Below, piece by piece: positions 3,115 to 56,642 of a DNA stretch of 64,000 nt. The notes below the pieces were generated by a model. That model saw only the letters and a program-made list of their open reading frames with translations. It made no database searches and had not been told where the DNA came from. The stretch's first letter is position 1; each line of letters begins with the position of its first letter. The position numbers and the translations under genes are program-made. The DNA comes from a virus (Duplodnaviria; Heunggongvirae; Uroviricota; Caudoviricetes), in IMG/VR virus record IMGVR_UViG_3300021387_000308, positions 38,037 through 102,036 of that record. The stretch is one strand, 5' to 3'.

Positions 3115-3618
3115 ATGAAGAAGGAATTATTTTTAATTGAAGCGATCAATATTACAAGTTTTTATGAAAATATGCCAGAGGAAAAGAAGAACGCTCTTCC
3201 ACTTAAAGTGTATTATGGACTTAAAAAGGTTGTGAGTAAACTTCAGCCTGATGTGCGTCAGTTTGAAGAGGTTCGTGATGAAGAGGTAAAAAAGATCCGC
3301 GACATCTACTTCTCTGAAGAAAAGAGCGAAGAAACTGCTATTCCAAAAACTGATGAAAATGGCGAACCTGTACTGGATGAAAATGGAAATCAGTTAACAG
3401 ATACTGGTCGCAAGGTTAAAGATGAATATGTAGACGAATACAAAATTGCAATGGATACGCTGAATGAAAAACTTCAGGAAATCGCAATGGAAAAGAATAC
3501 TTACGAATATAACTGGGTGGATATTGGAGAAATGGTTGAGAATCTTCCAGATGATACACCACTCACAAGAGGAGACATTGATATATTAGATGCAATATTC
3601 GATGAAACTGCTAACTGA
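3115..3618 (+). CDS. hypothetical acidic protein (167 aa), no in-frame TAG
   Basis: Track ORF. RBS aaaaggag 8 nt upstream of ATG. TGA stop followed by a terminator hairpin. Confidence 0.6.
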   Translation: MKKELFLIEAINITSFYENMPEEKKNALPLKVYYGLKKVVSKLQPDVRQFEEVRDEEVKKIRDIYFSEEKSEETAIPKTDENGEPVLDENGNQLTDTGRKVKDEYVDEYKIAMDTLNEKLQEIAMEKNTYEYNWVDIGEMVENLPDDTPLTRGDIDILDAIFDETAN

Positions 3619-3648
3619 GACTGATTAACTTCAGTCTCTTTCTTTTAT
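3617..3648 (+). terminator. rho-independent terminator (GAGACTGA-ttaact-TCAGTCTC then tttcttttat)
   Basis: 8-bp perfect stem at 3617-3624 / 3631-3638 followed by a T-rich tract. Confidence 0.55.
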
Positions 3649-3665
3649 GAGAAAGGATAAAACGA

Positions 3666-16535: not shown

Positions 16536-19500
16536 ATGGCCGATATTTCGGTAATAAAGCTCCCAAATGGGTCTTCTTATAATCTTAAAGATTCTTAGGC
16601 GATTGCTTCTGCCACGTTTTCAGGACACGAATTAACATTAGTAAAGCGAGGTAGTGGAACTCAAGTAGTTGATTTGGGAGACTTTGACACTATAAATGTT
16701 ACTGATGCGAATATCGGTAACTTGGTTGTAACTGGATCTGCTAGATTTACCAATGGTATATTTGGAGATCTTATTGGTAATGCATAGACAGCCACAACAG
16801 CTTCAAGAGTTTCTGGTGTTGCTGGATCTACTAATGCTGCACGACATGTGTGGTTTTCGGATAGCGGAACCGAAACTGCTAGAAATTATGATGATGATTT
16901 TAAATACAATCCATCCACTAACACATTAACTGTTGCGAATGTTAGTGGTAATGCAACATCTGCAACAACAGCAACCACATGTACTGGAAACGCTGCCACA
17001 TCAACCAAAGCAAACATAACAACAACTGCAAATGCAGTAGCAATATACACAGATACTGCTGGAACATTCGGAACAAAAGCTACGGCAAATGGTGCAGCTT
17101 ATGCAACATCAACGAACGGCGCTTTAACATTTGGTACTCTTCCAGTTGCCCAAGGTGGTACTGGAAAAACAAGTGGAAAAGATGCCGCTAATTATTTTAT
17201 GAATTCACTCGATACTGGAAGTTCAACTCCAGTAGATGCCGACTATTATATTTCTCAATATGTTAGCGGTGGAACAACAACTACAACATATCATCGTAGA
17301 CCAATGTCGGCACTTTGGTCATATGTATCTGGTAAACTTTCACATAAAATTGACGGTGTTACATTTAATGGTACAGCTGACATTATACATTATGGAACAT
17401 GTTCAACTGCGGCTGGTACTGCTGAAAAGGCAGTTACTTGTGCAAGTTGGAATCTCGTAACTGGTGCGACAATTTGGGTTAAGTTCACAGTAACAAATAC
17501 TGCTGCTGTTGCAAACCTTAAACTTAATGTCAGCAGTACTGGAGCAAAAGCAATTAAATATCGTGGCGGGAATCTTCCAATGGTCGCAACTCTTACAGCA
17601 AATAGAATATATGGATTTGTTTACGATGGAACGAATTTCGAATTACTTGGCGATCTTGATACAGACTCTAACAGTGATACTTGGAGAGCAATTTAGGTAA
17701 ATGGTACTTAGATTATTGCATCTAATTCAAATACTGCATTAAATCTTAAAGCAGGAACAAATGTTAGTTTATCCAACAGTTCTGGGACTGTAACAATAGC
17801 GGCTACTGATACTACATATTCCGCTGGAGTTGGTCTTACTCTCTCATCTACTACGTTTAAAGCAAAATTAAAATCTGAAACTAATTCTACTCAAGAATCT
17901 GCAACCGTTGGTACAACGGCTAATCGACAATATGCAGTTCATCCAGATAAATCTGGTTATCTTTCTGTAAATGTTCCGTGGACTGATACTACTAAAGCTA
18001 CTGCCTTTAACAGTGTTAGAGAAATTAAACTAACTGGTGATGTTACTGGTTCTGCAAGTGCTGACGGTTCTAGTGGATGGAGTATTGCAACTACAGTAGC
18101 AGATTATTCTCATAATCATTATCCTAATAATTTAATACTTGGTAATAGTGCTACTACTAGTAGTTTAGATCCATTAACTAGTGCATTTATAGGAAGTGCA
18201 GCATCAAACAAAACATTTGGATTACCAGCAAATGCAATTGTTATAGAATATAGTACAGATGGTGGTTCTACATGGACTGATTATGGTGCTACTGATGCGC
18301 AAAAGAGAGATTTATTTGCAGAAACTAGAGGAACTAATTTTGTTCTTGGTAAGTCAACATCTGCTTCTACAAATAGCACTAATAATAGATTACGTGTAAC
18401 TATTGAGCCAACAGATAGATATGTTGCTGTACATGGCATTTATGTTTGGTTTAATACACAAGGAAGCACTGCATATATGGATCTTGAAAGGTCAACTATT
18501 GGAGCGAAAGATACATTTACAACAGTATTTACTGGATAGCAAATAGCTGGTTGGTCTGGTAATAATATAAGATATTTTAGTGCTAGTTCGTTTGGAGGTG
18601 GTTCTAGTCAAACATCAAATCATTATAAATATAGAATCACATTTTACCAAACAGCAATTAATTCAAATTATTCTGGAGCGATTGTTAATGATATTAGGTT
18701 CTTGGGATTAAGTGTTCATTCTTCTCCAAACAACATGGTTGCCAAAAACCACCTATATACATGGAATTCTAGTTTAGACGCAACATTCCCAGCACAACTT
18801 ACTGCAACCAAATTTATTGGTAATGTAACTGGTAATGTGAGTGGAACTTCTTCTGGCGTTTTAGACGCTGGTAATAATAGTTCAACAACCACATTCGCAT
18901 ATTCAAAATCTGGGCTGAATGCAAATTGGACTACAACGCCCTGGTTTGCGGCATGGAATGGTTACGAATTAAGAGCAATTAATTCTGTTAATATGAAGAC
19001 TACTCTTGGTTTAAATAATGTTGATAATACTGCTGATGCTAATAAATCGGTTGCTTCTGCTGCAAAATTTACTTCTGCTTAGTCAGTAACTCTCACTGGA
19101 GACACTACTGGTACTGCAAGTTCATAGGCTGGATGGAGTATAGCAACAACTACGAAATTATTTACTGGAACACTTGAGAGCGCTACTGCTCTTACTACTA
19201 GTCCAACTGCTGGTAAAATTCGTTATAGTTATAATGTTAACAATGGTACAGCTGGATTATTTAATCACTCAAGTAATGCGAACTCAATTATTACATTAAA
19301 TAGACATAATGGCAATTATGATTCACAAATTGGATTTTCATCTGATGGGAATATCTATTATAGATCTTTTAATGGAAGTGCGTTGAATAATACTACAGCA
19401 TGGAAGACTATGTTAGATTCTGGGAATTACACTTCCTATACAGTAACCAAAACTGGTTCAGGAGCTAGTGGGACTTGGGGAATAAGTATTACTGGTAATG

Positions 19501-20396
19501 CAGCGACGGCAACCACGGCTTCTTCGGCTAGTGCGCTAACTGGTCTTACCGCAAATCGTTTTGTGATAGGTAATGGTTCGTCTGCTGCGTATGCGTCTAG
19601 TAGCATGGGGTATTTCAATAATGTTGATGTGACCGTTGCATCTACTACCGTTAAACGGAACGGATTATATATCACTGGCGCTGGATATGGTAACACCGCT
19701 TCGTAGCTAGTATCATAGACATCGGGTGTTCTCAGTTGGGGAGACGGTGGCCCTCAAATTATATTCAGCACTGGCGATTATTCTAACAGTTCTAGCCAAT
19801 CTGGTGCTTTAATATTTACTGATCATGATTCTGCTGGTACTGGTACAAGCTTCCACTTCGTTGGTAACCAAAGCGATTGGAGTGTGAATTCAAAACGTTT
19901 TGTGGCGAAAACGAGCGTGTCTGTCGGAGTGAATGTTCCCAACACGAGTTATAACTTATATGTTGCGGGTACAGCGAATATTACAGGGGTGACTACTGGG
20001 GCAAGTTTCATATCTTCGTCTAAGATGACAATATCCAGTGGAACAATGACGGAAATTGCTACCAACCAACGAGGAGGCTTGTTTGCTGACGGTGTGGCAT
20101 TTTCAAATCCTGCGACTAGAAATGATCAAGGTTGGATACGTTGTCTCGGAACTAGTGAATCAGATACTGTACTTGAGATTGCAACTGGCGATGACAGCGG
20201 TTCAGGAGAACAAATCAAAGCTAGACAGTACAATACATCTAGCGCAGTTGTTCATGAAATGACATTGTTGGATACGTCTGGACATACTGCGGTTCCAGGA
20301 AATCTGACAATCGGGTCAGGCACTACTGGTGCGAGTGGCACTGTTAAGCTTGTTATGAACACAAGCACTAATTCATTAGATTTCGTTTTCTATTGA
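16536..20396 (+). CDS. giant fibre protein (1286 codons), N-terminus MADISVIKLPNGSSYNLKDS(Q)A; compositionally distinct GC-richer C-terminal module
   Basis: RBS aaggaggtg then ATG 16536. Frame 3 is continuous through track ORFs 16848..17696, 18702..19082, 19383..19706, 19884..20396 to TGA (gaps 16536-16848 and 17696-18702 walked codon by codon). Confidence 0.7.
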
Positions 20397-28142: not shown

Positions 28143-28367
28143 ATGAAGAATATTAAAACTTCAAATGTTGTATTAATTGTAATAGCTATTGTATTAATTG
28201 TATTTACTACTGTATGTTTATATTTATTTGCAAAGATAGGCTCGGTTCCTGATTCACTTATTGGAGCCGTATTCGGTTCAGCATTGGGTGAGATGGGCTT
28301 TATGTCCTGGATACGTAACACAAAACAAAAGTATCGTGATGACGCACCACTTGAAGAGGAGGAATGA
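28143..28367 (+). CDS. holin-like small membrane protein (74 aa, TM VVLIVIAIVLIVFTTVCLYLFA, charged C-terminus)
   Basis: Track ORF. Stop overlaps the next start (ATGA). Confidence 0.55.
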   Translation: MKNIKTSNVVLIVIAIVLIVFTTVCLYLFAKIGSVPDSLIGAVFGSALGEMGFMSWIRNTKQKYRDDAPLEEEE

Positions 28368-28786
28368 TTATGACTGCTGCTACGTGGAATGATATTATGA
28401 GTGCTTGTATTCCGATTTTATGTCTGTTGATTACTGCTGGTGGAGCATATCTTGTTGCCCTGTTGAAGCGTGAAACAATGAAAATCGAAAAACAACTTGA
28501 TAACGAAATGATTAGTAAATATATTGAAATGGCAAATGATGCTGTCACTTAGGCAACTCTATATACTACTTAGGTATATGTTGAAACTCTGAAGAAACAA
28601 GGTGGATTTACTAAAGAAAAACAGATTGAAGCATTTAATATGAGTAAGCAAAAAGCTCTCGAAATTCTTGGTGACACTGCTATTAAAGCGCTGAATGAAA
28701 TTTATGGCGATCTAGATTCGTGGCTGAATACTAAGATCGAACAGGTTGTTTTTGAATCTAAAAATACTGTTGTAAAGGCAGAGTGA
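28364..28786 (+). CDS. membrane protein (140 aa; N-terminal TM then soluble helical domain), antiholin/spanin-like; 2 TAG(Gln)
   Basis: Track ORF 28364..28552 continues in frame 2 through TAGs 28550 and 28571 to TGA 28784-28786. Confidence 0.5.
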
Positions 28787-31701: not shown

Positions 31702-32418
31702 ATGAGTTATGTGAAAAATGTTTGGAGTGATGGAGATGTTATCACTGCAAATAAGATGAACAATATTGAAAATGGTATAGCTACGTTGCAAACCGACATG
31801 GGTAATATAACTGCTGAACCTATGATATCTATTACATGGGCAGAACTTAAGGCTAAACGTGATGACGGAAACCTTACGCCAGGTATGCAGTATCGCATTA
31901 CCGACTATGTTTGCACTACAACGCAGGAAGAAACTAGAGCAGTTAGTCATCCTTACGACATTATCGTAACAGCTGATAGTGCTAATACGCTTAACGAAAG
32001 CGCTATGGCTTGCTTGCATGATGGCGATGACTATTACACCGCCGAAGATCATTCCGCTAATCTTAAGGCTTGGGAACTTAAGTACTGTCTGGATAATGAT
32101 ACGACTAGATTTGCCTGGGCAGATGAGACAAACGGTAAGGGCGTTGTCTACTATCTTAAGGATGAGAAAGGTAACGAATGCCCTTACGATTTCAAACAGA
32201 TCCAGTTTAAGAGATACCTTATTACAGAATGCGAGAAAGTTCCTAGCTTGGTTAGCACCGCTGCTACGGCACTAATAGATTCTGCTATCATCACCGGGAT
32301 AGATGAAGATAACCCGGCTTGGTGCTATACGTTTACTAAATTTACAGGACCTGGCACAGTAGAAGATGCAACAGTATTAGGGTCACAGCATGAAGATAGC
32401 GACGGAGGTGGATATTAA
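31702..32418 (+). CDS. fibre module X (238 aa), no TAG; its core recurs fused inside the next gene
   Basis: RBS aaaaggagg then ATG 31702 (the track's 31681 start is an upstream TTG). TAA overlaps the next ATG (TAATGA). Confidence 0.6.
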   Translation: MSYVKNVWSDGDVITANKMNNIENGIATLQTDMGNITAEPMISITWAELKAKRDDGNLTPGMQYRITDYVCTTTQEETRAVSHPYDIIVTADSANTLNESAMACLHDGDDYYTAEDHSANLKAWELKYCLDNDTTRFAWADETNGKGVVYYLKDEKGNECPYDFKQIQFKRYLITECEKVPSLVSTAATALIDSAIITGIDEDNPAWCYTFTKFTGPGTVEDATVLGSQHEDSDGGGY

Positions 32419-34592
32419 TGAATGTACTTGGAAATAAAATAGCATATGCATCCTATCAAGATCAACAGATTCTTAATAATATAGTTTTTTTGGTAGTAAA
32501 CATTGGATGCTCTAATAACACCTTTGGTAATAACTGCTCTAAAAACACCTTTGGCGATGGCTGCTCTGAAAACACCTTTGGAAATGACTGCCGGAACAAC
32601 AACTTTGGCGATAACTGCAAGAACAACACCTTTGGTAATAGCTGCTACGACAACGTCTTTGACATCAACTGCTCTGAAAACACCTTTGGCAATGACTGCT
32701 ACAGCAACGCCTTTGTCAATAGCTGCTCTAAAAACACTTTTGACGATAATTGCACCGGCAACGCATTTGGCCGTGCATGCCTTGGCAACACCTTTGACAA
32801 TAGCTGCCAGGACAACACCTTTGGCGATAACTGCAAGAACAACACCTTTGGTAATAGCTGCGAAAATAACACCTTTGGCATTAGCTGCCAGAGCAATGCA
32901 TTTGGCGATAATTGCACCGGCAACGCATTTGGCGATAACTGCCAGAACAACACCTTTGGCAATGATTGCGCCGACAACACCTTTGGCGATAACTGCCAGA
33001 ACAACACCTTTGGCAATAGCTGTTATAGCAATACCTTTGATCATTGCTACGCTAATGTCTTAGAATTCAATTGCGGTTATCTTAAAGGCATGTATGACGA
33101 AACCGAAGGCACAACGGCACATTCATATCATGTGCTGCAATCAACTCATGGTACATCTGTTGAAGAATTATATGAACTCCCGACTAAGCCAGATACAGTT
33201 CTATCAGTCACTTACGTTGGAATGGACAGTAGCGGAAATATTACAACGTGGATCCTTGCCGAAGTTAACAATGGTGGTAGCGGTGGATCAGCTACACCAA
33301 TGGAATCCATTACATGGTCTGAACTTAAAGTAAAACGTGATGGTGGAACTCTTACACCTGGCATGTAGTATCGAATCACAGACTATGTCTGTACCACTAC
33401 GTAGGCAGAGTCTAGAGCTGTCAGCCATCCTTATGATATTATTGTGACAGCTGATAAAGTTAATGTGCTCAACGAAAATGCTAGGGCTTGTCTTCACGAT
33501 GGTGATGACTATTACACTGCTGAGGGACATTCTGCTAATTTAGCTGTTTGGGAGCTTAAGTACTGCCTGGATAACGACGAAACTAGGTTTGGATGGGCAG
33601 ACACCGAAAACGGTAAGGGCGTTGTTTACTATCTTAAGGATGAACATAATAACGAGTGTCCTTACGATTTTAAGCAGATTCAGTTTAAACGGTATAGGAT
33701 TACTGAATGCGAGAAAGTTCCTAGCATTGTTGGAGCCTATACGGCACCAATAGAATCTACTGTTATCACCGGAATAGATGAAAATAACCCAGTTTGGGGC
33801 TACACATTTTGTTATTATGGAAATAATCTAGACGATGCAACGGTATTAGATGCACAGCATTATTTAGATGACTGCGGAGTATTTGGAAATAAAATAGCGC
33901 CGGCGTACAATGGCGATCTAATGGTTCTTAATAATATAGTTTTTATAACTATCACCGACGGCTGCTACGGTAACACCTTTGACGAAGGGTGCGGTTACAA
34001 TACCTTTAGCATTACATGTTGTAACAACGCATTTGGCTATAACTGTCATAGCAACATCTTTAATGCTGGTTGCACCAGAAACGCATTCAACAATTCTTGT
34101 GTCGGGAATATTTTTAGTACTAGGTTCAAAGAAAATACTTTTGGCAATGAATGCCATGATAACATCTTTGGCAATGAATGCCATGATAACATCTTTGGTA
34201 ATGACTGCCATGATAACATCTTTGGTAATGACTGCTCTAACAACATATTCGGTAATAACAGTTATAGTAACACATTTAGTAATAACTGCTATAATAACAC
34301 CTTGGGCAATTCCTGCCCGTTCAATTCCTTTGGTAGCAATTGCCATAATAATATTTTAGAAAACACATGCGGTTATCTTAAAGGTACATATGATGAAACC
34401 AACGGCACATCAACACATTCGTGTCATGCATTAGCCGGAACTAGAGGACTGCCTGATCGATTATATGAGCTTCCGACTAACCTAGATTCAAATAAATCAG
34501 TCACTTACGTTGGGATGAAAAGCAACGGAAATATTATAACGTGGGTGCCGGCCGATGTTCATGATGATCCAGATGAGGGTGGGCTACGGTGA
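32418..34592 (+). CDS. beta-helix-type fibre protein (724 aa): 9-residue repeat array - tail - copy of module X - second repeat array - tail; 2 TAG(Gln)
   Basis: Track ORFs 32418..33368 and 33444..34592 are both frame 3 and joined through TAG 33366 and TAG 33402. Both TAGs align to CAG codons (31888, 31924) in the upstream paralog. Confidence 0.7.
32508..33057 (+). repeat. about 20 tandem 27-nt coding repeats (peptide C-x-x-N-T-F-G-x-x)
   Basis: Periodic NTFGDNC / NTFGNSC units in the translated ORF. The same units on the antisense strand create spurious ORFs. Confidence 0.7.
33963..34371 (+). repeat. second array of about 15 27-nt coding repeats (C-H-D-N-I-F-G-N-E type)
   Basis: Same 9-residue periodicity in the second half of the gene. 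Confidence 0.65.
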
Positions 34593-35250: not shown

Positions 35251-36933
35251 GTGAAAATTATGTCCGTAACAATAAATAATTTGGCTAAAAAAGCATGGAA
35301 GGTTTTTCTAAAAGAAGGGATGACAAAACAAGGAGCAGCTGGAATGCTGGGTAATATTTTTGCAGAAAGTGGAATGAATGCTTCTATTGTTGAATACCTA
35401 TGTCTTCAACGGCTTAGAGAAAATGGCAAAAATTATACTCAAGAATCATATAGATAGGCTGTTGACAATGGTAAAATTACGAGAGCAGAATTTTTAAATC
35501 CATTGCCAGGCAAATAGTATGGTTGGGGATGGACTTAGTTAACAACTCCTGTTCCACGAAAATCAGAGTTCTATGATAGAACAGTTGCCGTTGGTAAATC
35601 AATAGCTGATGAAGATGAGCAAATTAATTACACTATTTATGAACTTAAAACAAGATATAAAAGTGTGTGGAAAGTACTTACAACCACAACTTCTATTAAA
35701 ACTGCTTCTGATACTGTATTGAGAGATTTTGAATCACCAAGTAATTGGTAGCAATATAGTTCATTGAGAATGCAGTATTCTTAGGAGTATTATGATTATT
35801 TTAATAATCAAGCTACAGGCACGAAAGGAAGTGATGTTGTGTCAGTAACTAGAGAACAAGCAATTAATGCGATGATATCTACCGCAGAAGCTGAGATCGG
35901 ATATCTTGAGAAAGCTAGTAATTCTTAGCTTGATTCTAAGACGGCTAATGCTGGTAGTAATAACTATACTAAATATTGGAGAGATGTATATCCCGCATAT
36001 CAAGCCCAAGCGTGGTGCGCTTGTTTCGTATCTTGGGTGTTTATGAAAACATTTGGATAGGAAACTGCCAAAAAGCTTCTTAAACACTGGCCTTATGTTT
36101 ACTGCCCAACTATGGCATCATTGTTTACGCTTAATGCTAATCCGAAGAAAGGTGATATTGTAATCTTTTATCGCAATGGCACATTTGCTCATACTGGGAT
36201 TGTTGTTGGTGTAAATGGAGATTAGTTTACTACTATTGAGGGTAATACCTCGAATGGTTCTACTATTATTGCAAATGGTGGCGGAGTATGCAAAAAGAGT
36301 TATTACAACTCAAATCTGCCAGGTACTAAATTCTGTACTCCAGATTACTCAATAGTAACCAAGATTCTCTCTGGTAATACTACTATCAATACTACTACAA
36401 CCACTACTTCTACTACCACTACTACAACTACCTCTTCTACTTTGAATGAAACTCCAAAGTGGAAAGGTAAATTAAATCGTAATGCAAAAGTTCGTACTTG
36501 GGCTGGATCAGAAAATAAAGAAGTATCGTTTTCTCCACTCAAGAAAAATATCCAAGTAGAAGTGTGTGATACTGTTAAAGATACAAAGAATCGTAATTGG
36601 TATTATATCAAAGTAAATGATAAATTTGGTTTTATATATAGTAAATATATAGATAAAGTTGTTGCTAATACAACTAAACCAACTAAAACTACAACCGCCA
36701 AAACCACTACTACGCAATATCGTGTTCAAGCTGGAGCATACTCGGTACTTGCCAATGCAAATGCTACTGTAAAGACTCTGACCAAATCTGGGTATGATGC
36801 TGTGGTAGTCAAGAGCGGAAATAGTTATATTGCATAGCTTGGAATGTTTGGTTCACTAGCTAATGCAAATGCACTTAGAGATAAAGTTAAATCTGACGGT
36901 TTCGATGCCGTTGTTATTGCTATAAAATCATGA
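35251..36933 (+). CDS. multidomain peptidoglycan hydrolase (560 aa): N-terminal lysozyme-like domain (AAGMLGNIFAESG), CHAP/NlpC-P60 domain (AWCACFVSW ... HTGIVVGV), SH3b-like domain, C-terminal SPOR domain; about 9 TAG(Gln)
   Basis: GTG 35251 or ATG 35260. Frame 1 continuous through track ORFs 35251..35457 and 36442..36837 to TGA 36931-36933. Cys and His catalytic motifs of CHAP recognised; SPOR motif YRVQAGAYSVLANANATVKTL. Confidence 0.65.
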
Positions 36934-36950
36934 TGAGGAGATAAAAAGGA

Positions 36951-38102
36951 ATGAACGTTTATTTAGATAATGCTGCAACTACACAGATGTTGCCAGAAGT
37001 AATTGATGCTATGAAGTCATATATGATTGAATACTATGGAAATCCATCTGGATTATATACGATTGGATTTAAAACAAAAAATATGCTTGATGATTGTCGC
37101 AAAACTATTGCACAGACTATCAATGTATAGCCTAACCAGATTTATTTCACATCTGGTGGAACTGAGGGAGATAATTGGATTATTAAAGGTGTTGCTGAAG
37201 CGCTGGAAACAAGAGGTCATCATATTATTACTTCTTCTATTGAACACAAAGCAATTCTTAAATCTTGTGAATGGCTTGAAGATCATGGATTTGAAGTAAC
37301 ATATATTGACCCAGATGATCGCGGTTTTATCCATGTATCTGATATTGAAAGTGCCATCCGTGAAGATACTATTCTTGTTAGCATTATGTATGCTAATAAT
37401 GAAGTTGGTACTATACAGCCAATTGAAGAGATTGCTAAAGTATGTAAAAATTATCATGTGTTGTTCCATACAGATGCAGTTCAAGCATATGGTCATGTTC
37501 CAATCAACGCTCGGAAATTTGGTATTGATTTCATGACAACAAGTAGTCACAAATTCCATGGCCCAGACGGTGTAGGATTTGTCTATATTCGTAACCCAAA
37601 AACTATTTCTCAATTTATCCACGGTGGACAACAAGAATCTGGATTCCGCGCTGGAACAGAAAATATGTTGGGTATTGTTGGAATGGCAAAAGCTGCGGAG
37701 ATTGCACATAAAAATCTACAAACTAATATTAATTATATGACATCACTCAGAGATGTGTTTATTGATGAGTGTTTAAATAATATACCAAAGTGTCACCTGA
37801 ACGGTTCTCTCATAAGTAGACTGTGTAATAATATCAGTTTAACATTTGATGGTGTTCCCGGCGAATCTTTGGTAACAATGTTGGATATGATGGGAATAAG
37901 TTGTTCTACTGGAAGTGCTTGTAATTCTTCCGATGAAAAACCATCACATGTTTTAACTGCCATGGGTAGGACTGATGAGTATGCCCATAATACACTCAGA
38001 TTTACTCTTTCTGAGTTGACAACGGCAGATGAGATAGATTATGTTCTTCAATGTTTAAAACGCACTATTTCTGATATTAGGAGGTTATATGGGCAAAAGT
38101 AA
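36951..38102 (+). CDS. class V aminotransferase / cysteine desulfurase (NifS/IscS-like, 383 aa) with 1 TAG(Gln) at 37128
   Basis: RBS aaaaagga then ATG 36951. Frame 3 walk through TAG 37128-37130 to track ORF 37386..38102 checked. PLP-lysine motif SSHKFHGP, active-site Cys motif GSACNS, FTSGGTE motif. Confidence 0.75.
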
Positions 38103-38316
38103 TTGGAGTGGGTTTATAACTTATCATAGGATTAAACGTGCGCAGACCAATTTAGATAAGGTGAATCAATAGATGTTTGAAGACATTTCTTTATTACATC
38201 CACCAAAACTGGATGAAGACTATGTAAAATCATGTATAGATAATAATTAGCCAATTGACTAGGAGCAATAAATTACTCGGCAAGTTTTTGCTCCACTTTC
38301 GTTTTATATATATTTA

Positions 38317-38350
38317 GGGGATACCGTTATTTTTGGTATCCCCATTTTTT
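38317..38350 (+). terminator. rho-independent terminator (GGGGATACC-gttattttt-GGTATCCCC then atttttt)
   Basis: Perfect 9-bp GC-rich stem plus T tract, 215 nt after the cysteine desulfurase stop. Confidence 0.7.
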
Positions 38351-38474
38351 ACCATTTTACGTACTTGTATATAACTAGGAATTGTTTATTCATAATCATA
38401 TATAAATATATAAAGTGCAATGTATACGCTCTATCCTTTCTATAATTTATATTTTATCAAATGTAGTCACATAA

Positions 38475-38486: not shown

Positions 38487-38580
38487 AATGCTAAAATGCA
38501 CATGAGAAAATGCGATATATTCAGCATTGTCGAGACCGGACACGCCTCGTCACCCCGCTTAAATACTGGGTTTGCGGGCT

Positions 38581-38603: not shown

Positions 38604-39914
38604 CTAAGCTAGGGATGATTTTACCATCTTTTTTTCGGCGCTTTCCATGTAAAATTTTTTCTTATCAAAATTTTGAATGTCGTATGTGTAATGAAGATCA
38701 TTGACCCTTGGAGTGTTACCAATTAGGCTTCCAGCTTCAGTAGCAGATACACCATCAAATCTTAGATAAGAATTAAATGTCCTTCTGATAGCATGAATAC
38801 TTTTGTGTGAATCGAATTTGATCTGCTCACATTTATGATTCATGTATGCAGTAAGGTTTTTACATCTCAGCTTTTGACCGTCAAAAGAAAAAACAAAGTC
38901 ACCCTCTTGACCATATTCGCGCTGTAAATCCCGCATCTTATTCAGAAAGGTATTGATCTCTTCCGTAATAGGAATCGTTCTTGTCTTACCAGTCTTTGTT
39001 TTGGATTGCTCGTAAGTTTTATTGACTACATCATATTTCTCAGATTCACATACTATTATATGGTCGTTGAGAACGTATTTCCAACGAAGTCCAGCAATCT
39101 CACCGCATCTCATTCCAGTGAGTAGTGCAAATTGAACTCCATAAGGATAAATGTAATCTTTCTTGCGCAAGATGTCGGAATTTATTTTGTTGATCAGGAT
39201 AGTCAATTCTTCTTGAGAAAGAGTACGTTCTTCAATAGTTTTTTCATCCGTGTTGTAGAACTTCACGAACTTCTTCTTATCAACAAACTGACACGGGTTA
39301 TCTTGCGGTGGAATAACCTTATCTATAACAGCATTGTAAAATACACCACTGATATAAGAATATAATCCATCTGCTCCTCTCCGCTTAAGATTGAACTTTT
39401 TTATGTTGTTTATCATAAATAGTTCAATATCTTTTGAAGTAATCGATGATAAGTCTGCTCTAGCGAACGGAGTACCGTCAAAAAACCGAAACCAGTCTGT
39501 CTCATAGCGTCTTATACTGTTGTTGGATTTGCCGTATTCTTTCTGCATCTCCATCCACTTGTCATGACCTTTGGAAAAAGTATATGTTTTATCCTCTGGT
39601 TCTTCTTCCCCAGTATAAAAGCGCACTATTAAATCTTCTAACTCTTTCAGAGTTTTCTTACTCTTTTGAACTATCTTGCCATCAACATTAAATCTTGTTA
39701 ACCACCTGTCTTTCTTCTCGTTGTACTTTGGTTCGTATGGATGTTGTAACAGTATACGTTTACGTTTCTCCATCTCGATCAACTCACGTATACATTGCAA
39801 GTCCATATTACCACTTTCTTCAATACTTTTCAATGCTGCATCTAATTCGTTAATATTATTAGGGGTAACCTCTTCGGCTACCCCATTTTTTACCATTTTT
39901 CTACTCATAGGCAT
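38604..39914 (-). CDS. tyrosine recombinase / phage integrase (436 aa), TAG stop
   Basis: Track ORF. Catalytic motifs LLTGMRCGEI (Arg), HAIRRTF (His-x-x-Arg), C-terminal Tyr in LHYTYD. The stop is TAG at 38604-38606. Confidence 0.8.
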   Translation of the reverse strand: MPMSRKMVKNGVAEEVTPNNINELDAALKSIEESGNMDLQCIRELIEMEKRKRILLQHPYEPKYNEKKDRWLTRFNVDGKIVQKSKKTLKELEDLIVRFYTGEEEPEDKTYTFSKGHDKWMEMQKEYGKSNNSIRRYETDWFRFFDGTPFARADLSSITSKDIELFMINNIKKFNLKRRGADGLYSYISGVFYNAVIDKVIPPQDNPCQFVDKKKFVKFYNTDEKTIEERTLSQEELTILINKINSDILRKKDYIYPYGVQFALLTGMRCGEIAGLRWKYVLNDHIIVCESEKYDVVNKTYEQSKTKTGKTRTIPITEEINTFLNKMRDLQREYGQEGDFVFSFDGQKLRCKNLTAYMNHKCEQIKFDSHKSIHAIRRTFNSYLRFDGVSATEAGSLIGNTPRVNDLHYTYDIQNFDKKKFYMESAEKKMVKSSLA

Positions 39915-42646: not shown

Positions 42647-45600
42647 TTAACTGCAATGACTAAATCCACAATCTTTGCATGTACTACAGCCACCCTCGAA
42701 TATAAGTTCTCCACCGCATTCTGGACAAATCGCTTTTGTTTTTTGTTTAGGAACTTTTACAACATCATTATTTACAGTTGCTTCTACAACTTTAGTAGGA
42801 GTGATCACATACTCATCGTCTTCATCAAAGATATCATCTTGGATTTCACGATACATATCAATTAATGCATTTGCAATCGCTACTGGGCAACTATTACCTT
42901 TTGATGTATCATGCTTGGTCGCTGTTCTTACAGTATAAGACGGACAAGCTGGAACGCTCATAAGCTGGTCAGCAATAGAATTAATATCAACTCCACCTCT
43001 TGCAGATAATGAAATCAATCTTGAGATTGCTGTAAGGTTACAAAGGCATCCTCCGCTACTACCCTTATTTAAGAAGCATTCTAATAAATCACCAGTATCT
43101 GGATCAAAAAATGCAGAACAATGTAGAGAACCGCAGCCAGTCACTAAATGTCTTTCTTTACCAACGGAATTATTATCAACCTTAATAATCATTCCTCTTT
43201 CTAATTTCTGAGGAATATGTTTTACCTCTTCTTCTGAGTGATCGATTGTTAAAATTCCTGCACGTTTACATCCATCACGGAAGATTGTTACACCTTTAAG
43301 GCCAGCTTCCCACGCTTTCATATAAAGGTCTTCTACTTCTTCAATAGTAAAGCTATTTGGTACATTAACCGTTGAAGAAATACTAGCATCAATATGTTTC
43401 TGCCAGATTGCTTGCATTTTAATGCGTTCTTTATAATCAAGTGTTTGTGCTGTCACAAAGAAATCGGGTAATTCAGAATCGTCATCAATATTGTTTTCAT
43501 CCATATATTTTTTTACAATCGGAGTATAAACTTTATAATACTCATCATGTCCATGAAGCGACTCTGTTTTTCTTGTATAGTAATTTGCAAAAATTGGTTC
43601 GATACCACCAGACACTCCAAGCATCGTAGAAAGTGTTCCAGTTGGGGCAATAGTAAGTAGCTGCGAGTTAGCAAGTCCACAAGAAACATCTGTATCACCA
43701 ACATGCTCACTAAAGAATGCAGATTGAGCAACTGCCTCTGGATGATACTTAGGATAATGACCAATTACTTTTGCAAGTTCAGCAGATGTCTTAATAGCTT
43801 GATATGCCATCTTCTGACCAATCATGTCGCACAGATGGATAGATTCATCACTACCATAACGAACACCCATTTTAATCAACATATCTGCCAAGCCAAAGAT
43901 TCCTAATCCACACTGTCTCCAATCTCTAACAGATTCTCTCTGTTCTTTGAGAGGATGAAGTGGAATACCCTCATCAAGAACTTCATTCAATGCTTTAATG
44001 GCAATATCTACTGTATTTGAAAAATCTTCAAAATCAAAAAGCTTATCTTTAGTTACAAATTCTGAAAGATTGATGGAGCCGAGCAAACACGACCCACCGG
44101 GCGGAAGCGGTTCTTCTGCACAATTATGAACAACAAAACCATTTACAACTCCCCAATGTCTTTCAGGTTCTGTAAAATCATATACTTTTATCTTACCATT
44201 TGGTACTACACTAGTAACTTGCATAGCACGTTTTTTAATCATATTACACAGCTGCTCTCTCTTATACTGCTGATAAAAGCCAATGCAAGCCATAAATTTA
44301 ATAATTTCTTGATATCTTCCAATATTGATATCATAACTTTCGCGGATTTCATAAGTCCCATTTTCAAATTCAATCTTGTGTGGTTTATTTGTTGTAATAT
44401 ATGCATTGCAGATATCAAAATCTTCTTTTAATGTAGAAACTAATTTTTCCGCAAAAGCCTTACATGTGGTTTTATATGAAATTCTTCCACCTTTGTGTGT
44501 ATCATTCTTTTTTATAACACATCCATTTGCGGAATAACAGCCACATAAAAAACTTGATTTTTCTAATCTAGTCCATGTATCGTATGTAGAAGGAAATTCT
44601 CTGTCTGGCAAAATATTAGGAGAAAACCCTAACTTAACTAATTCTGGTTGATAATTTGCTAAATAAATTGCACGTTCTGATTTTTTCGTAAATTCTTCAT
44701 CGGAAAACAAATCCCAGATATCGGTATCTTTCTCTCCAATATTAACTTCGATTCCATCATGATATTTACTATTTAATCTAGTAGTTTGCCCATCACCCTG
44801 AATAAATCCAAGCTTAATAAAATGATTATCAAGATTATGGTTTGAACGAGTTAATGGCATTATATATTTACCAGTTAAATTCTCAGCACGACATTCTTCT
44901 CCATCTAAAGTCATAAATCTATGATCTGGAGTACAAATTACTTCTGTGTTATAGAATTTTACTTTAACAGTATCTTTTTCTCCGTTGCACCATACTTTAC
45001 TTTTTACAACGTTCCCATCAACATTAATAATATAAGGTTCAGTACCGTCAAGCTCTTCAAACGTTTTATATCCATCAACTGTAAGAAGTTTCGAATCTCC
45101 AGAAAAACATGGGTTTACTCCACCATATTTAAATTCAGGATCGCAACTAAGAAGATTCCAATTTTCTATTCTATCCCAGAAAAGCATTCCAGGTTCGGCC
45201 CAATCCCAATTAGACTCACAGATTTTATGAAATAATTCATAAGCATCAACTGTTTTAGTAATCGTTTCTCCAGTTTCTACTCTTGTAAAACTAAGTTCAA
45301 ATGGTTCACGATTTTTTACAGCTGCCATAAATCTATCAGTAATACGAATACTAATATTAGCTTTTGTAACCCTATCAGTATTTTGCTTAATTCCAATAAA
45401 TTCTTCAATGTCTGGATGGTCAACGGGGATTGATATCATCAAAGCTCCTCGTCTTCCCGCTTGCCCAATCAAACCAGTAACCATAGAATACAAATCCATA
45501 AAACTTACTGATCCAGATGTTTCTTTAGCGGCATTATGGACTATAGCGCCTCTGGGTGCAAGTTTACCAATATCAATGCCACATCCACCACCATAAGAAT

Positions 45601-45898
45601 AAGTACGTGCCAATTTCTTAGCACAATCAAAGATTTCTTCGATGGAATCACCAGGAGCAGATATCACATAACAATTTGATAAACTAATTTTTCTACCATC
45701 GTTATTAGTTCCACGATTGGCGAGGATTCTTCCACCAAATAAAAACTTTTTATCAATAATCTGCTTTTTTAATATTTCATTTTTATTGGTAATTCTATCA
45801 AGCCATTCATCAAATGTTTCGCCATTATATTGATACTTTCTTTCCCATATGTCAGTTGCTAATTTATTATCTTTACCAAGCCAATCTTCTACTCTCAT
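42647..45898 (-). CDS. nrdJ: ribonucleotide reductase, class II-like (adenosylcobalamin type), intein-containing precursor (1083 aa; about 754 aa after splicing), C-terminal zinc ribbon
   Basis: Extein junction reconstructs the active-site motif GGVNP-C-AEEPLPPGGSC. C-terminal CPECGG ... CSTCKDCG. Standard code, TAA stop. Confidence 0.7.
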   Translation of the reverse strand: MRVEDWLGKDNKLATDIWERKYQYNGETFDEWLDRITNKNEILKKQIIDKKFLFGGRILANRGTNNDGRKISLSNCYVISAPGDSIEEIFDCAKKLARTYSYGGGCGIDIGKLAPRGAIVHNAAKETSGSVSFMDLYSMVTGLIGQAGRRGALMISIPVDHPDIEEFIGIKQNTDRVTKANISIRITDRFMAAVKNREPFELSFTRVETGETITKTVDAYELFHKICESNWDWAEPGMLFWDRIENWNLLSCDPEFKYGGVNPCFSGDSKLLTVDGYKTFEELDGTEPYIINVDGNVVKSKVWCNGEKDTVKVKFYNTEVICTPDHRFMTLDGEECRAENLTGKYIMPLTRSNHNLDNHFIKLGFIQGDGQTTRLNSKYHDGIEVNIGEKDTDIWDLFSDEEFTKKSERAIYLANYQPELVKLGFSPNILPDREFPSTYDTWTRLEKSSFLCGCYSANGCVIKKNDTHKGGRISYKTTCKAFAEKLVSTLKEDFDICNAYITTNKPHKIEFENGTYEIRESYDINIGRYQEIIKFMACIGFYQQYKREQLCNMIKKRAMQVTSVVPNGKIKVYDFTEPERHWGVVNGFVVHNCAEEPLPPGGSCLLGSINLSEFVTKDKLFDFEDFSNTVDIAIKALNEVLDEGIPLHPLKEQRESVRDWRQCGLGIFGLADMLIKMGVRYGSDESIHLCDMIGQKMAYQAIKTSAELAKVIGHYPKYHPEAVAQSAFFSEHVGDTDVSCGLANSQLLTIAPTGTLSTMLGVSGGIEPIFANYYTRKTESLHGHDEYYKVYTPIVKKYMDENNIDDDSELPDFFVTAQTLDYKERIKMQAIWQKHIDASISSTVNVPNSFTIEEVEDLYMKAWEAGLKGVTIFRDGCKRAGILTIDHSEEEVKHIPQKLERGMIIKVDNNSVGKERHLVTGCGSLHCSAFFDPDTGDLLECFLNKGSSGGCLCNLTAISRLISLSARGGVDINSIADQLMSVPACPSYTVRTATKHDTSKGNSCPVAIANALIDMYREIQDDIFDEDDEYVITPTKVVEATVNNDVVKVPKQKTKAICPECGGELIFEGGCSTCKDCGFSHCS
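44123..45109 (-). mobile_element. intein (329 aa) with LAGLIDADG homing endonuclease, inserted at the RNR active-site cysteine
   Basis: Starts CFSGDSKLLTVDGY (block A), has TPDHRF (block B), LGFIQGDG and FLCGCYSANG (LAGLIDADG motifs), ends ...GFVVHN followed by +1 Cys. Confidence 0.8.
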
Positions 45899-46329
45899 AC
45901 ATATTCTCTCCCATACATTCTCACAAGATCTTCTTCAATAGCCATAGCCTTAGCTTCATGTTTGGTACAGAAACCATTAGCAATCATTGCAGCATCAGAG
46001 AGATCTTTTGCAATCCTATGATAAAGTCTAGCAAGCTTCAGATGGTTTTTGAGTTCAAGCTTTTCAGAACAAACATCAATACCAACCTTTTCATCAAACT
46101 CATCTTTCTCATCACAATAAGCATTGGCTGTGATATTATTTTCTCTCATCAGAAAATCAAATATAGTATACTTACGACTCGCGTTTCTAATCAATCGTTT
46201 ATATTTGTCCTTAATACCAGCCTTGAGATCATTCTCAATACCTTTTTCAACCATCTTACCCTGAACCAGACGAGCTTCCGGGATAACCTTAAATTCTTTA
46301 TTTCTAACATTAACTTTCTTCATAATCAA
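45895..46329 (-). CDS. hypothetical early protein (144 aa)
   Basis: Track ORF, start overlaps the next gene's stop. Confidence 0.45.
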   Translation of the reverse strand: MIMKKVNVRNKEFKVIPEARLVQGKMVEKGIENDLKAGIKDKYKRLIRNASRKYTIFDFLMRENNITANAYCDEKDEFDEKVGIDVCSEKLELKNHLKLARLYHRIAKDLSDAAMIANGFCTKHEAKAMAIEEDLVRMYGREYV

Positions 46330-46604
46330 TCCTCCTGTGCAATTACAATAGCATTATAAATAATTGTTCTCTTACCATCGAGGTCAAATAAAACCTTGTT
46401 TTCATTAGACTCAATATCAATCTTGCCACTATATTCGGCAATTTTTTCACCAGTATTTGCATATACTGTGACGGTTCTATCAATTCCACCGCTAAAATTC
46501 GATAAAATACTTTTTTTATCTCTATTCCATTTAGCGGTACATCCACTAAGGACAAAAGCTGCACCAATCACAATACATGCAATACTAATAATCTTCCTTT
46601 TCAA
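46326..46604 (-). CDS. putative lipoprotein (92 aa; signal peptide then lipobox LSGC)
   Basis: N-terminus MKRKIISIACIVIGAAFVLSGCTAKW. Confidence 0.45.
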   Translation of the reverse strand: MKRKIISIACIVIGAAFVLSGCTAKWNRDKKSILSNFSGGIDRTVTVYANTGEKIAEYSGKIDIESNENKVLFDLDGKRTIIYNAIVIAQED

Positions 46605-46885
46605 CTGTAAAATCCCTCCGTTCTATAAGCGCCGAGTTCACTTACTTTGCGAAAGAACTCTTCAATCTCGAAATAGTCATTGGTAACAGGAGCCAAAGTA
46701 ACGTCTCTCCCACACATTTCCATAACTCCCATCACAGAACGACCATCAACACAAAGTCTTCCACTAATAACATTAACATCAATATTTAAGCTGTCACAGA
46801 TAGCGCAAAATTTATTTACTTTATCTACTGTCAGCCTCATCCTGATTTCGTTCGTCCTGCTGTCCATCAACTTTCTCCAATTCAT
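46601..46885 (-). CDS. HPr-like phosphocarrier-fold protein lacking the catalytic His (94 aa)
   Basis: DGRSVMGVMEMCG resembles the HPr Ser46 region (LKSIMGVMSLG). The region that should hold His15 reads KFCAICDS. Confidence 0.4.
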   Translation of the reverse strand: MNWRKLMDSRTNEIRMRLTVDKVNKFCAICDSLNIDVNVISGRLCVDGRSVMGVMEMCGRDVTLAPVTNDYFEIEEFFRKVSELGAYRTEGFYS

Positions 46886-55768: not shown

Positions 55769-56048
55769 CTTTCAACCTCGCCATGCTGCAAAAATCATCT
55801 GGGCCAGTATTGTTACCAAAAATTCTACTAAATGGTGATTTACTACATTCGCCATATTCAAACTGAGTACCTTGATATAAAACGCTACAATAGTGTTTAC
55901 AATCTTTACAATGGATAATTTCTTCGCTATGCAAATCGCACATCATTTTTCTCGCTTGAGAATAAAATCCGCGCTCACCATTTTCGATTGCGTCTTCAAA
56001 CTGATCTAAAATATCAAGAGCATCAGACTTGTTAATATATTCATTCAT
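55755..56048 (-). CDS. Cys-rich small protein (97 aa), CKDCKHY family
   Basis: HCKDCKHYCSVLYQGTQFEYGEC, paralogous to 48861..49157. Confidence 0.4.
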   Translation of the reverse strand: MNEYINKSDALDILDQFEDAIENGERGFYSQARKMMCDLHSEEIIHCKDCKHYCSVLYQGTQFEYGECSKSPFSRIFGNNTGPDDFCSMARLKDENL

Positions 56049-56428
56049 TCTATTACATCGACCTCTAATCCATACTGTTTCGCCAATTTAATCATATTTC
56101 TAGTTCCGCGACTTTCACCAATTGGAAATGCTATTAATATTCCCCTATCAGCTTCCGCAGCATATTTTGCCATTTGTTCATTACGGATTGGGCCAGCAGC
56201 TTTACCATATTTATCCCATTCAGCTGGGAATACTACTAATGGATAGCCATATGCTTTAGCAAACCTTTCGCCAAGTTTATCCGCTCCATTAGCATGACCG
56301 CTTATAATTTCAATAGGATTAATGGTATTCATAAGATGAACACCAAGTTCGTCCAGAGTCTTTAACATTTTTTCGTAGTCATTAAACTCTCGACTGCCAG
56401 CAATTATAATTCTTGTCATATTATTCAT
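56045..56428 (-). CDS. SLOG-superfamily (DUF2493/YpsA-like) protein, about 127 aa from MNNMTRIIIAGS
   Basis: AGSREFNDYE ... SGHANGADKLGERFAKAYGYPLVVFPAEWDKYGKAAGPIRNEQM. Track ORF 56045..56518 probably starts at the internal ATG, after the stop of the upstream gene at 56421. Confidence 0.5.
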   Translation of the reverse strand: MNNMTRIIIAGSREFNDYEKMLKTLDELGVHLMNTINPIEIISGHANGADKLGERFAKAYGYPLVVFPAEWDKYGKAAGPIRNEQMAKYAAEADRGILIAFPIGESRGTRNMIKLAKQYGLEVDVIE

Positions 56429-56642
56429 ATACCCCATACATAGACCCAACAAAAACAGCCGAATAAGACCCATCTTGTTTGACATCCACCACATATGTAC
56501 CAGCATGATATACATCAAAGTTTATTGATGCAATTGGCTTTGGAATATCAATTCCCACATTGTCACCAATACCGATTTTTTTAATGTTGTTATTAACATA
56601 TTCAGCCATCGTGTTCACTCTCACACTTCTTGTTTGGATCAT
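56421..56642 (-). CDS. hypothetical early protein (73 aa)
   Basis: Track ORF. Confidence 0.3.
   Translation of the reverse strand: MIQTRSVRVNTMAEYVNNNIKKIGIGDNVGIDIPKPIASINFDVYHAGTYVVDVKQDGSYSAVFVGSMYGVYE

Follow-up and report, generated by a model that had tools for sequence, protein, structure and literature searches.

Cysteine desulfurases start all cellular sulfur trafficking: iron-sulfur (Fe-S) clusters, thiolated tRNA and several cofactors depend on them. In E. coli, the tRNA-thiolation branch of this traffic promotes infection by phage lambda, the Fe-S branch competes for the desulfurase IscS, and 2-thiouridine at tRNA position 34 (s2U34) limits frameshifting (PMC3296357). Part of the IscS surface that the scaffold protein IscU touches is the C-terminal helix alpha12 (Arg379-Lys391), and IscU binding is lost in IscS(delta376-404) (Shi et al. 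2010, PMC2854127). In Gram-positive bacteria, the pairs YrvO-MnmA and NifZ-ThiI operate without a scaffold (PMC5372745). Among viruses, iscS is abundant in human-gut viral contigs (VIBRANT, PMC7288430), and further surveys mention viral iscS/nifS auxiliary genes (PMC12911398; PMC11041744). Another feature of gut phages is code 15, the reading of TAG as Gln, which has been validated (PMC9523058), and a published model holds that recoded stop codons restrict translation to the late phase (summarised in PMC10607447). Here we describe a cysteine desulfurase gene with an in-frame TAG, at 36951-38102 on the + strand of a 64,000-nucleotide stretch of DNA from a phage of the Caudoviricetes (IMG/VR record IMGVR_UViG_3300021387_000308, positions 38,037 to 102,036). 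This whole stretch is called the window below.

How does this locus compare with the described systems? The closest cellular sequences are Clostridial/Bacillota NifS enzymes from rrf2-nifS-nifU-mnmA clusters, with 45-53% identity, the same fold and catalytic residues and similar length. However, those enzymes have a tail of 12-19 aa with an SPL(Y/W) motif, a C-T-S-G-S-L-(D/E)-P loop and adjacent nifU, mnmA and rrf2 genes, all missing from the phage clade, which is set apart at 200/200 bootstrap replicates. E. coli IscS is 40% identical to the phage enzyme, with catalytic residues conserved and a template-modelling (TM) score of ~0.93, but the phage protein stops within helix alpha12, part of the IscU dock (PMC2854127), and there is no isc operon around its gene. 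The B. subtilis systems YrvO-MnmA and NifZ-ThiI (PMC5372745) may be alike in the mode that we propose, a stand-alone desulfurase that serves a thiolation enzyme. Like this type, the phage enzyme is tail-less and has no scaffold neighbour; unlike it, neither mnmA nor thiI adjoins the phage gene, and the kinship in the tree is nominal (<=33/200). DndA and SspA belong to the same superfamily and give moderate scores (TIGR03235, 368 bits; PDB 6m4j and 3vax), but the phage score is below the cut-off of 480 and the dndBCDE/sspBCD partners occur in no context. The code-15 late and lytic genes of gut phages (PMC9523058; PMC10607447) likewise carry TAG only on the structural and lysis strand, at conserved Gln, and not on the integrase/early strand, whereas the recoded gene here is that of a metabolic enzyme. 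The survey entries for iscS/nifS also represent phage-borne cysteine desulfurases, as does PHROG family phrog_12787, which matches the desulfurase over its full length (E 1e-134) and is labelled 'unknown function', but no lineage, synteny, recoding or clade features are described for them. No paper that connects cysteine desulfurases with recoded stop codons in phages came up in a full-text literature search. Viral iscS as such is in the catalogues; what is new is a compact phage-specific clade, its fixed site at the end of a recoded late operon and its clade-specific losses at the scaffold interface. Viral desulfurases have so far been mere survey entries, and here one is found as a fixed, selected, late component of a recoded large-phage lineage.

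Identity of the desulfurase

The predicted product of the gene is an intact class I (NifS/IscS-type) pyridoxal phosphate (PLP) cysteine desulfurase of 383 aa, which ends at a TAA stop and has one internal stop in its frame. The Pfam domain Aminotran_5 (PF00266) spans residues 3-365 of 383 (E 6e-84), and cysteine desulfurases in the PDB (T. maritima NifS-like 1ecx, E. coli IscS 1p3w and human NFS1) align at full length, with best E 1e-98. The top NCBIfam model is NifS TIGR03402 with 484.9 bits, which is under its curated cut-off of 530.75. The IscS equivalogs TIGR02006 and NF010611 give 381.5 and 384.9 bits, under their cut-offs of 643.2 and 548, and the IscS-subfamily model NF002806 is passed with 333 bits against a cut-off of 304. 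The group II (SufS/CsdA) model TIGR01979 gives only 175.9 bits against a cut-off of 475, and the DndA model TIGR03235 gives 368.2 bits against 480.

In an alignment with K-12 IscS, the residues H104, D180, Q183, S203, H205, K206, C328 and R354 of the E. coli enzyme are invariant in the phage clade; the window equivalents are H99, D175, Q178, S198, H200, K201, C324 and R350. The PLP Schiff-base lysine is Lys201 (codon at 37551-37553, +) in the motif TTSSHKFHG, an invariant column, and the persulfide-forming cysteine is Cys324 (codon at 37920-37922, +) in the motif TGSACNSS, followed by the clade-specific Asn325. This loop matches the group I consensus SSGSAC(T/S)S except that Asn stands in place of T/S (TGSAC324NSS). 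The AlphaFold model of P0001, a protein 99% identical to that of the window, has a mean predicted local distance difference test (pLDDT) score of 91.4, with the mobile Cys loop (324-327) as its sole low-pLDDT segment, and it superposes on NFS1/IscS with TM ~0.95. By family chemistry, the enzyme would convert L-cysteine to L-alanine and hold the sulfur as a persulfide on Cys324. A reading of the window made earlier from the letters alone (the sequence-only reading) had recognised a complete NifS/IscS-type PLP enzyme, and the full-length Pfam, NCBIfam and PDB matches, the intact catalytic residues and the confident model agree with it.

Phage residency and phylogeny

Over its whole length the window matches a stretch of a 118,309-bp ENA scaffold at 100% identity, where window position w corresponds to scaffold position 80326 - w. 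This parent scaffold carries phage genes on both sides, with a 7,650-aa tape measure upstream and further early ORFans downstream, and the base composition is uniform over the junction at 36940. For comparison, nine homologs with 54-99% protein identity were taken from a large protein database, on ten contigs of 7-154 kb. In all ten contexts the desulfurase is followed by a convergent integrase, sometimes with a small open reading frame (ORF) between, and a SPOR-type lysin or SPOR protein lies upstream in all nine contexts that reach that far (L014 does not). Further along these contigs there are usually a dUTPase and a ribonucleotide reductase (RNR). The family is one of large TAG-recoded phages with an integrase (contigs up to 154 kb), and no enzyme gene follows the desulfurase in their late operon.

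Where the ratio of nonsynonymous to synonymous substitution rates (dN/dS) of the desulfurase is computable, it is 0.09-0.27; because dS is near saturation, these values are only qualitative. A neighbour-joining tree was built from 105 sequences; in it, bootstrap 200/200 supports a single clade of the phage copies with their relatives from the database. Its sister group is placed at <=33/200, and the nominal neighbours are tail-less enzymes without nearby NifU. The top match among 185,579 GTDB species-representative genomes is 51% identical among the matches listed, of which the best 80 loci were kept; neither an integrated copy nor a host was indicated, since nothing exceeds 51% identity in those genomes, among the matches listed. 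A peptide search of IMG/VR with the desulfurase gave only loci of 43-48% identity, all outside the clade, and when the matches of a profile search are clustered at 50%, only a few representatives of the clade are left. These data show that the desulfurase belongs to the phage and that its clade is phage-specific and monophyletic.

Several candidate relatives were set aside. Matches by blastn and tblastn in INPHARED are either pieces of lysin or records labelled 'phage' that evidently come from host contigs (Listeria, Staphylococcus and Enterococcus assemblies). The top INPHARED match, MT835487.1 (51%), was dropped as an UNVERIFIED record with standard code, 42% GC and cell-like genes. The TAG-recoded phAss-1 or 'Phassvirus' of Clostridia is not this family, and PMC10607447 mentions no integrase or desulfurase.

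The sequence-only reading had assigned the gene to the phage and had named two findings that would overturn this, a chimeric contig at 36940 and a degraded host fragment. The same gene order in ten related contigs and TAG codons at unrelated positions, invariant Gln codons included, uphold the assignment; phage genes flank 36940 on either side, and the dN/dS values point to purifying selection. Because conserved synteny, TAG pattern, selection and phylogeny agree, we exclude both a chimera and a host fragment in decay. That the gene encodes a functional, phage-resident, late and recoded desulfurase is, in our judgement, at least very nearly certain.

TAG recoding of the late genes

When TAG is read as sense, the + strand from 88 to 38102 is an unbroken block of long genes, including tail and fibre proteins. 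In this block TAG makes up ~0.9% of codons, while the - strand block is nearly TAG-free; by late and early codons of the window, the shares are 0.88% and 0.07%. The other related loci have 0.3-1.9% late versus <=0.25% early, with L013 as an exception (0.60% of just 662 codons). The late Gln codons in the window are 201 CAA, 107 TAG and 66 CAG, so that TAG is the second most used with 29%; the early ones are 76 CAA and 70 CAG, with ~11 TAG that are mostly likely true stops. The depletion of CAG in late genes suggests a wholesale CAG-to-TAG replacement of the late block.

In the desulfurase, the TAG is at 37128-37130 (+), codon 60, where homologs vary (Q, S, D, K). It is the single internal stop in the frame, at the position given by the sequence-only reading, which had also rightly located the gene directly after the lysin in a TAG-recoded late block. 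With Gln at this codon the translation reads ...TIAQTINVQPNQIYFTSGGTEGDNWIIK across it. Is this TAG a chance lesion? Nine of the ten related contigs have a desulfurase with 1-4 in-frame TAGs, and none has an internal TAA or TGA; the L018 copy is TAG-free. Across nine gene copies the TAGs fall in 16 distinct alignment columns. Two of these columns are Gln in all 60 cellular references, one of them the PLP-site Gln (E. coli Q183), and in each of the two, TAG arose independently in two phage lineages. Of the other columns, one is Gln-dominant and seven are dominated by Glu or Lys, against a background Gln frequency of 1.7%. This pattern shows that the desulfurase has long resided in a recoded genome. 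The codon-60 TAG is no chance lesion, given the TAG density of the late block. A full-length desulfurase requires that TAG be decoded as Gln.

The decoding tRNA was searched for in the part of the scaffold that was read: 77.8 kb of the parent scaffold (the window, L008 and L012) and, via the 93% relative L102, the equivalent of ~7.6 kb more, ~85 kb in all. The other ~31 kb of the scaffold (87.2-118.3 kb) lie beyond this and consist chiefly of tape-measure sequence with, presumably, the head module. No suppressor tRNA(CUA) was found in this phage and its close relative, with no tRNA by ARAGORN and no Rfam family in the ~85 kb, the ~31 kb being outside the scope; nor is there any tRNA or Rfam match around the desulfurase in nine related phages. 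A suppressor tRNA is either in the unseen ~31 kb or not encoded by the phage.

As a side observation, the integrase stop (38604-38606, -) is a TAG; read as Gln, it would give a 15-residue C-terminal extension to the next stop at 38559. Several further early ORFs seem to terminate in TAG.

C-terminal tail and catalytic loop

The phage clade differs from most cellular enzymes at two places. One is the C terminus. All 58 'long' cellular homologs have a tail of 12-19 aa with SPL(Y/W), for which the E. coli IscS counterpart is LSPLWEMYKQ..., while proteins of the phage clade end 0-9 aa after the position of E. coli R381 and have no SPL motif. The window protein ends ...IRRLYGQK, 6 aa past that position. 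The other is the Cys loop, which reads GSAC-N-(S/N)-x-(D/E)-x-x-PSHVL in the clade and almost always GSAC-T-S-G-S-L-(D/E)-PSHVL in NifU-adjacent cellular enzymes. The residue after the catalytic Cys is Asn in 21 of 21 clade members, and T or S in nearly all cellular enzymes. From these alignments, the clade appears to have lost two marks of NifU/IscU-coupled enzymes: the SPL(W/Y) helix at the C terminus and the SL(D/E)P form of the Cys loop.

Is the tail related to the neighbouring genes in cellular genomes? At the 36 nearest cellular loci, the adjacent genes include NifU_N in 24, Rrf2 in 16, MnmA in 14 and NadA in 3, that is, the rrf2-nifS-nifU-mnmA cluster. For 71 cellular loci with enough flank, NifU was counted within 3 kb. 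Both tail and NifU are present at 31 loci and both are missing at 27; 2 loci have the tail without NifU, and 11 have NifU without the tail, several of which bear tail variants outside the pattern used. Presence of the tail thus follows that of the scaffold gene. Among the tail-less enzymes without NifU, MnmA is directly downstream in L027, L098, L059, L074 and L065, and ThiI in L071, as in the YrvO-MnmA and NifZ-ThiI arrangement of B. subtilis (PMC5372745).

Partner genes

No scaffold gene (nifU/iscU) was found within +/-10 kb in the ten phage contexts, nor in the ~85 kb of the phage and its relative, and dndBCDE or ssp genes are present in no phage context. The sole Fe-S-related gene within +/-10 kb in the ten phages is an NrdG activase (Radical_SAM/Fer4_12) in L015, L016, L017 and L018. 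Beside NrdG lies the class III RNR NrdD, except in L016, whose contig ends before that point. In the window phage and L006 the RNR is of class II and NrdG is missing. The Cys-rich small early proteins resemble zinc ribbons, with no recognisable Fe-S client among them. The ~7.6-kb equivalent region in L102 encodes a DNA ligase, thymidylate synthase (ThyA), DUF1599, a deoxyribosyltransferase and ORFans.

Possible function

What might a phage do with such an enzyme? Because the full-length product needs TAG read-through, under the published recoding model the desulfurase would be made late, alongside structural and lysis proteins, and not early or in a lysogen. Its persulfide would be passed to host proteins, since no acceptor is encoded in the phage parts seen; any thiolation acceptor would likewise be host-encoded, as mnmA and thiI occur in no phage context. 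The sulfur might then be handed directly to host MnmA and/or ThiI, in the manner of Gram-positive YrvO and NifZ, a mode favoured because the clade has lost both NifU/IscU-coupling features, the tail and the Cys loop. In this way tRNA thiolation (s2U34 and 4-thiouridine at position 8, s4U8) would be kept high while very long, TAG-rich late proteins are translated, and upkeep of the reading frame by s2U34 should matter for ORFs of 2,895 and 7,650 codons. A tRNA-thiolation sink is also favoured because NrdG, the sole phage-encoded Fe-S client, is early and absent from the window phage. The help that the tRNA-thiolation branch gives phage lambda in E. coli (PMC3296357) and the tail-less cellular enzymes followed by MnmA or ThiI count for it as well. 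We put forward this late-made, scaffold-independent donor to host MnmA/ThiI tentatively, as a reading that falls somewhat short of probable. A stronger version is that the clade is a dedicated thiolation booster tied to the code switch, which shed the Fe-S-scaffold interface and directs late sulfur to host MnmA/ThiI and any phage tRNAs, not to NifU, and would thereby safeguard the reading frame and efficient decoding during translation of TAG-dense proteins of 2,900-7,650 residues; this is possible, though we would rather doubt it.

Several observations weigh against a scaffold-independent role in tRNA thiolation. The tail-less A. fulgidus IscS (382 aa) was crystallised with IscU bound (4eb5), so tail loss is no proof of lost scaffold binding, and the window subclade itself retains 4-6 residues past the conserved Arg. 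Codon usage lends the idea no support, because Lys, Glu and Gln codons are not enriched late (12.7% in late versus 18.7% in early genes). A CUA suppressor anticodon has no U34 for thiolation. No mnmA, thiI or tRNA gene lies near the desulfurase in the ten phages or in the ~85 kb examined; the sequence-only reading had speculated on tRNA modification or Fe-S supply and had proposed a look for partner genes, which turned up no thiolation enzyme, scaffold or tRNA there. The tail-less cellular relatives L032, L043, L048 and L042 have no MnmA or ThiI neighbour either, the sister group of the phage clade has support of <=33/200, and four related phages (L015-L018) do encode the Fe-S client NrdG activase. 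Activity and expression of the desulfurase are themselves predicted.

The point about NrdG leads to the main rival reading, Fe-S supply, in which the phage desulfurase feeds host NifU/IscU, or clusters form directly on clients, for Fe-S enzymes that the phage needs (NrdG in relatives, Fe-S virion proteins or host metabolic proteins). Viral iscS/nifS auxiliary genes are by default read in this way (PMC12911398), and the idea fits the NifU_N gene adjoining 24 of the 36 closest cellular homologs in their rrf2-nifS-nifU-mnmA clusters, the activase in L015, L016, L017 and L018, and the IscU bound by the tail-less A. fulgidus enzyme. The clade, however, is without the IscU-docking tail and the SL(D/E)P loop of NifU-adjacent enzymes, a scaffold gene is in none of the phage contexts, and the gene is kept in the window phage and L006 despite their class II RNR and lack of NrdG. 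There is also a mismatch in timing, with NrdD/NrdG as TAG-free early-strand genes and a desulfurase that needs late TAG read-through. On this evidence Fe-S supply is possible but doubtful. Could the sulfur go elsewhere? It may serve an unrecognised phage acceptor (e.g. the small downstream ORF or an ORFan), or a modification of DNA, cofactor or protein, or the purpose may be consumption of cysteine or production of sulfide or alanine near lysis. The Asn after Cys in 21/21 members suggests adaptation to a non-standard partner, a small recoded ORF is conserved after the desulfurase in several phages, the gene always adjoins lysis genes, and the DUF1599 and nucleoside deoxyribosyltransferase genes of the family hint at nucleotide or DNA modification. 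Yet the small ORF is missing in several phages and its L006 copy is Cys-free, the DndA model stays under its cut-off (368 vs 480) with no dndBCDE/ssp seen in the contexts, and no specific alternative is positively supported, which makes such a sink improbable.

Might the gene instead be a lysogenic-conversion 'moron', expressed from the prophage for the benefit of the host? Cargo genes of temperate phages of Gram-positive bacteria typically sit beside the integrase, and here the desulfurase lies between the lysis module and the integrase end, with a TAG-free copy in L018. But the 1-4 in-frame TAGs in 9/10 contigs would truncate the protein under the standard code of the host. The gene follows 17 nt behind the lysin and has a ribosome-binding site, with neither a strong terminator nor a clear promoter to itself; all across the family it is fixed, not sporadic, and an integrated copy was not found in the 185,579 genomes, among the matches listed. 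Expression for host benefit is thus very unlikely. An artefact, be it a degraded host fragment, a pseudogene or a chimeric junction near 36940, is effectively refuted. One internal stop does resemble a pseudogene under the standard code, but synteny is kept in ten independent assemblies, the TAGs include invariant Gln codons, there are no TAA/TGA stops or frameshifts, dN/dS is 0.09-0.27, and composition is uniform over the junction with phage genes on either side.

What would follow from these readings? If sulfur does go to tRNA thiolation, the phage would have a route to tune late translation fidelity, one that joins sulfur metabolism to stop-codon recoding and to giant structural proteins. 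This route would naturally mirror the IscS/IscU/TusA competition by which phage lambda growth is controlled in E. coli. If the clade is a dedicated booster, the phage would itself encode the kind of IscS partitioning effect known genetically for phage lambda. If Fe-S assembly is served instead, the gene would be a clean case of a conserved metabolic auxiliary gene gated by a genetic-code switch.

The late operon around the desulfurase

The next gene upstream is an endolysin (35260-36933, +) with Phage_lysozyme2, CHAP and SPOR domains in Pfam and 9 in-frame TAGs. A Shine-Dalgarno-like GAGGAG at 36935-36940 (+) lies 10 nt before the desulfurase ATG, within the 17-nt gap after the lysin stop. There is no strong terminator between lysin and desulfurase, and no clear promoter for the desulfurase alone. 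Downstream, a small recoded ORF (38089-38271, +) of 60 aa with 3 TAGs and its own GGAGG overlaps the desulfurase stop and carries the motif W..RI(K/R)RAQxN. It has no Pfam or PHROG match. Homologs with the motif conserved lie downstream of the desulfurase in L006 and L014, the L006 copy being without Cys, and are missing in L007 and L018; in L017 a 62-aa ORF is called at this position (matched by position only).

The late operon ends at a terminator hairpin GGGGATACC-N-GGTATCCCC, then ATTTTTTACCATTTT (38317-38358, +). The hairpin at 38317-38343, followed by ATTTTTT, is the sole strong + strand terminator within 34.5-40.3 kb. The sequence-only reading had put the desulfurase between the lysin and a strong terminator: the terminator is there, and the 60-aa ORF at 38089-38271, which that reading overlooked, intervenes. 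The hairpin 3' arm with its tail, GGTATCCCCATTTTTTACCATTTT (38335-38358, +), is exact over 13-24 nt in 7/9 related loci, and the match persists where proteins are ~54% identical; in L007 there are 14 nt overlapping the hairpin sequence, and in L013 nothing. Is this conserved tail an att core? A search of IMG/VR with CCCCATTTTTTACCATTTT led to unrelated phages with the same tail after other hairpins, and the tail ATTTTTTACCATTTT also trails different hairpins in the unrelated IMG/VR phages L112-L114. Because the same tail follows other hairpins in unrelated phages, it is more likely a general terminator or late-regulatory signal. No att site is identifiable. The att/integrase region that was expected next is therefore half confirmed, by a convergent tyrosine integrase (38604-39914, -; PF00589, E 2e-13; 436 aa in standard code). 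The - strand from 38.6 kb encodes this integrase, an SPFH protein, a dUTPase, a class II RNR with an intein, and many small ORFans.

Some other late genes are worth describing. The holin (28364-28786, +; phrog_13712, E 3e-54) is 6.5 kb upstream of the lysin with tail-fibre-like genes between, so the lysis module is split. A late ORF of 2,895 aa at 3666-12353 (+) has 21 in-frame TAGs. The 7,650-aa tape-measure protein (PhageMin_Tail) lies just upstream of the window (L008 1-4634), and its length implies a micrometre-scale tail, if the usual length rule holds. A 724-aa late tail-region protein (32418-34592, +) contains 45 cysteines (6.2%) with no CxxC motifs and dozens of ~10-residue repeats (NTFGxxCxxN) at both ends, and a second copy of its central domain makes up the preceding 238-aa gene (31702-32418, +). 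By its repeats, this Cys-rich protein looks like a Cys-ladder beta-helix.

Other features of the phage and its relatives

The class II RNR of the window (42647-45898, -; Ribonuc_red_lgC and TSCPD, 1,083 aa) is split by a LAGLIDADG intein at residues ~300-592. Its L006 homolog is intein-free (761 aa), with a free-standing HNH_3 gene beside it, and in more distant relatives class III NrdD/NrdG takes its place, divided in L015 by an inserted gene. The ~920 bp that separate the RNR start from the neighbouring - strand gene (45899-46820) contain no convincing coding-strand ORF; the + strand ORFs look spurious and an Rfam search of this region was empty. A regulatory function or a non-coding RNA is conceivable here.

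In L007, the late block contains one more integrase-family gene, along with a reverse transcriptase (RVT_1, 6 TAGs) by a Big_3/DUF6273 protein (3307-4305 and 6616-7779), and the reverse-transcriptase locus may be a diversity-generating retroelement that targets a tail fibre. L018 (154 kb) encodes at 18150-20193 a T4 Rnl1-type RNA ligase adjoining a KTI12/AAA_33 kinase-like protein, a putative tRNA-repair pair, and a glutaredoxin-like protein next to NrdD. As judged from these predicted genes, the lineage appears to invest in tRNA maintenance. Among the early ORFans, a Tad4-family protein (PF25186; L012 5435-5767, just past the window end) and a YAcAr/SLOG-type protein (56045-56515, -) are candidate counter-defence or nucleotide-signalling genes.

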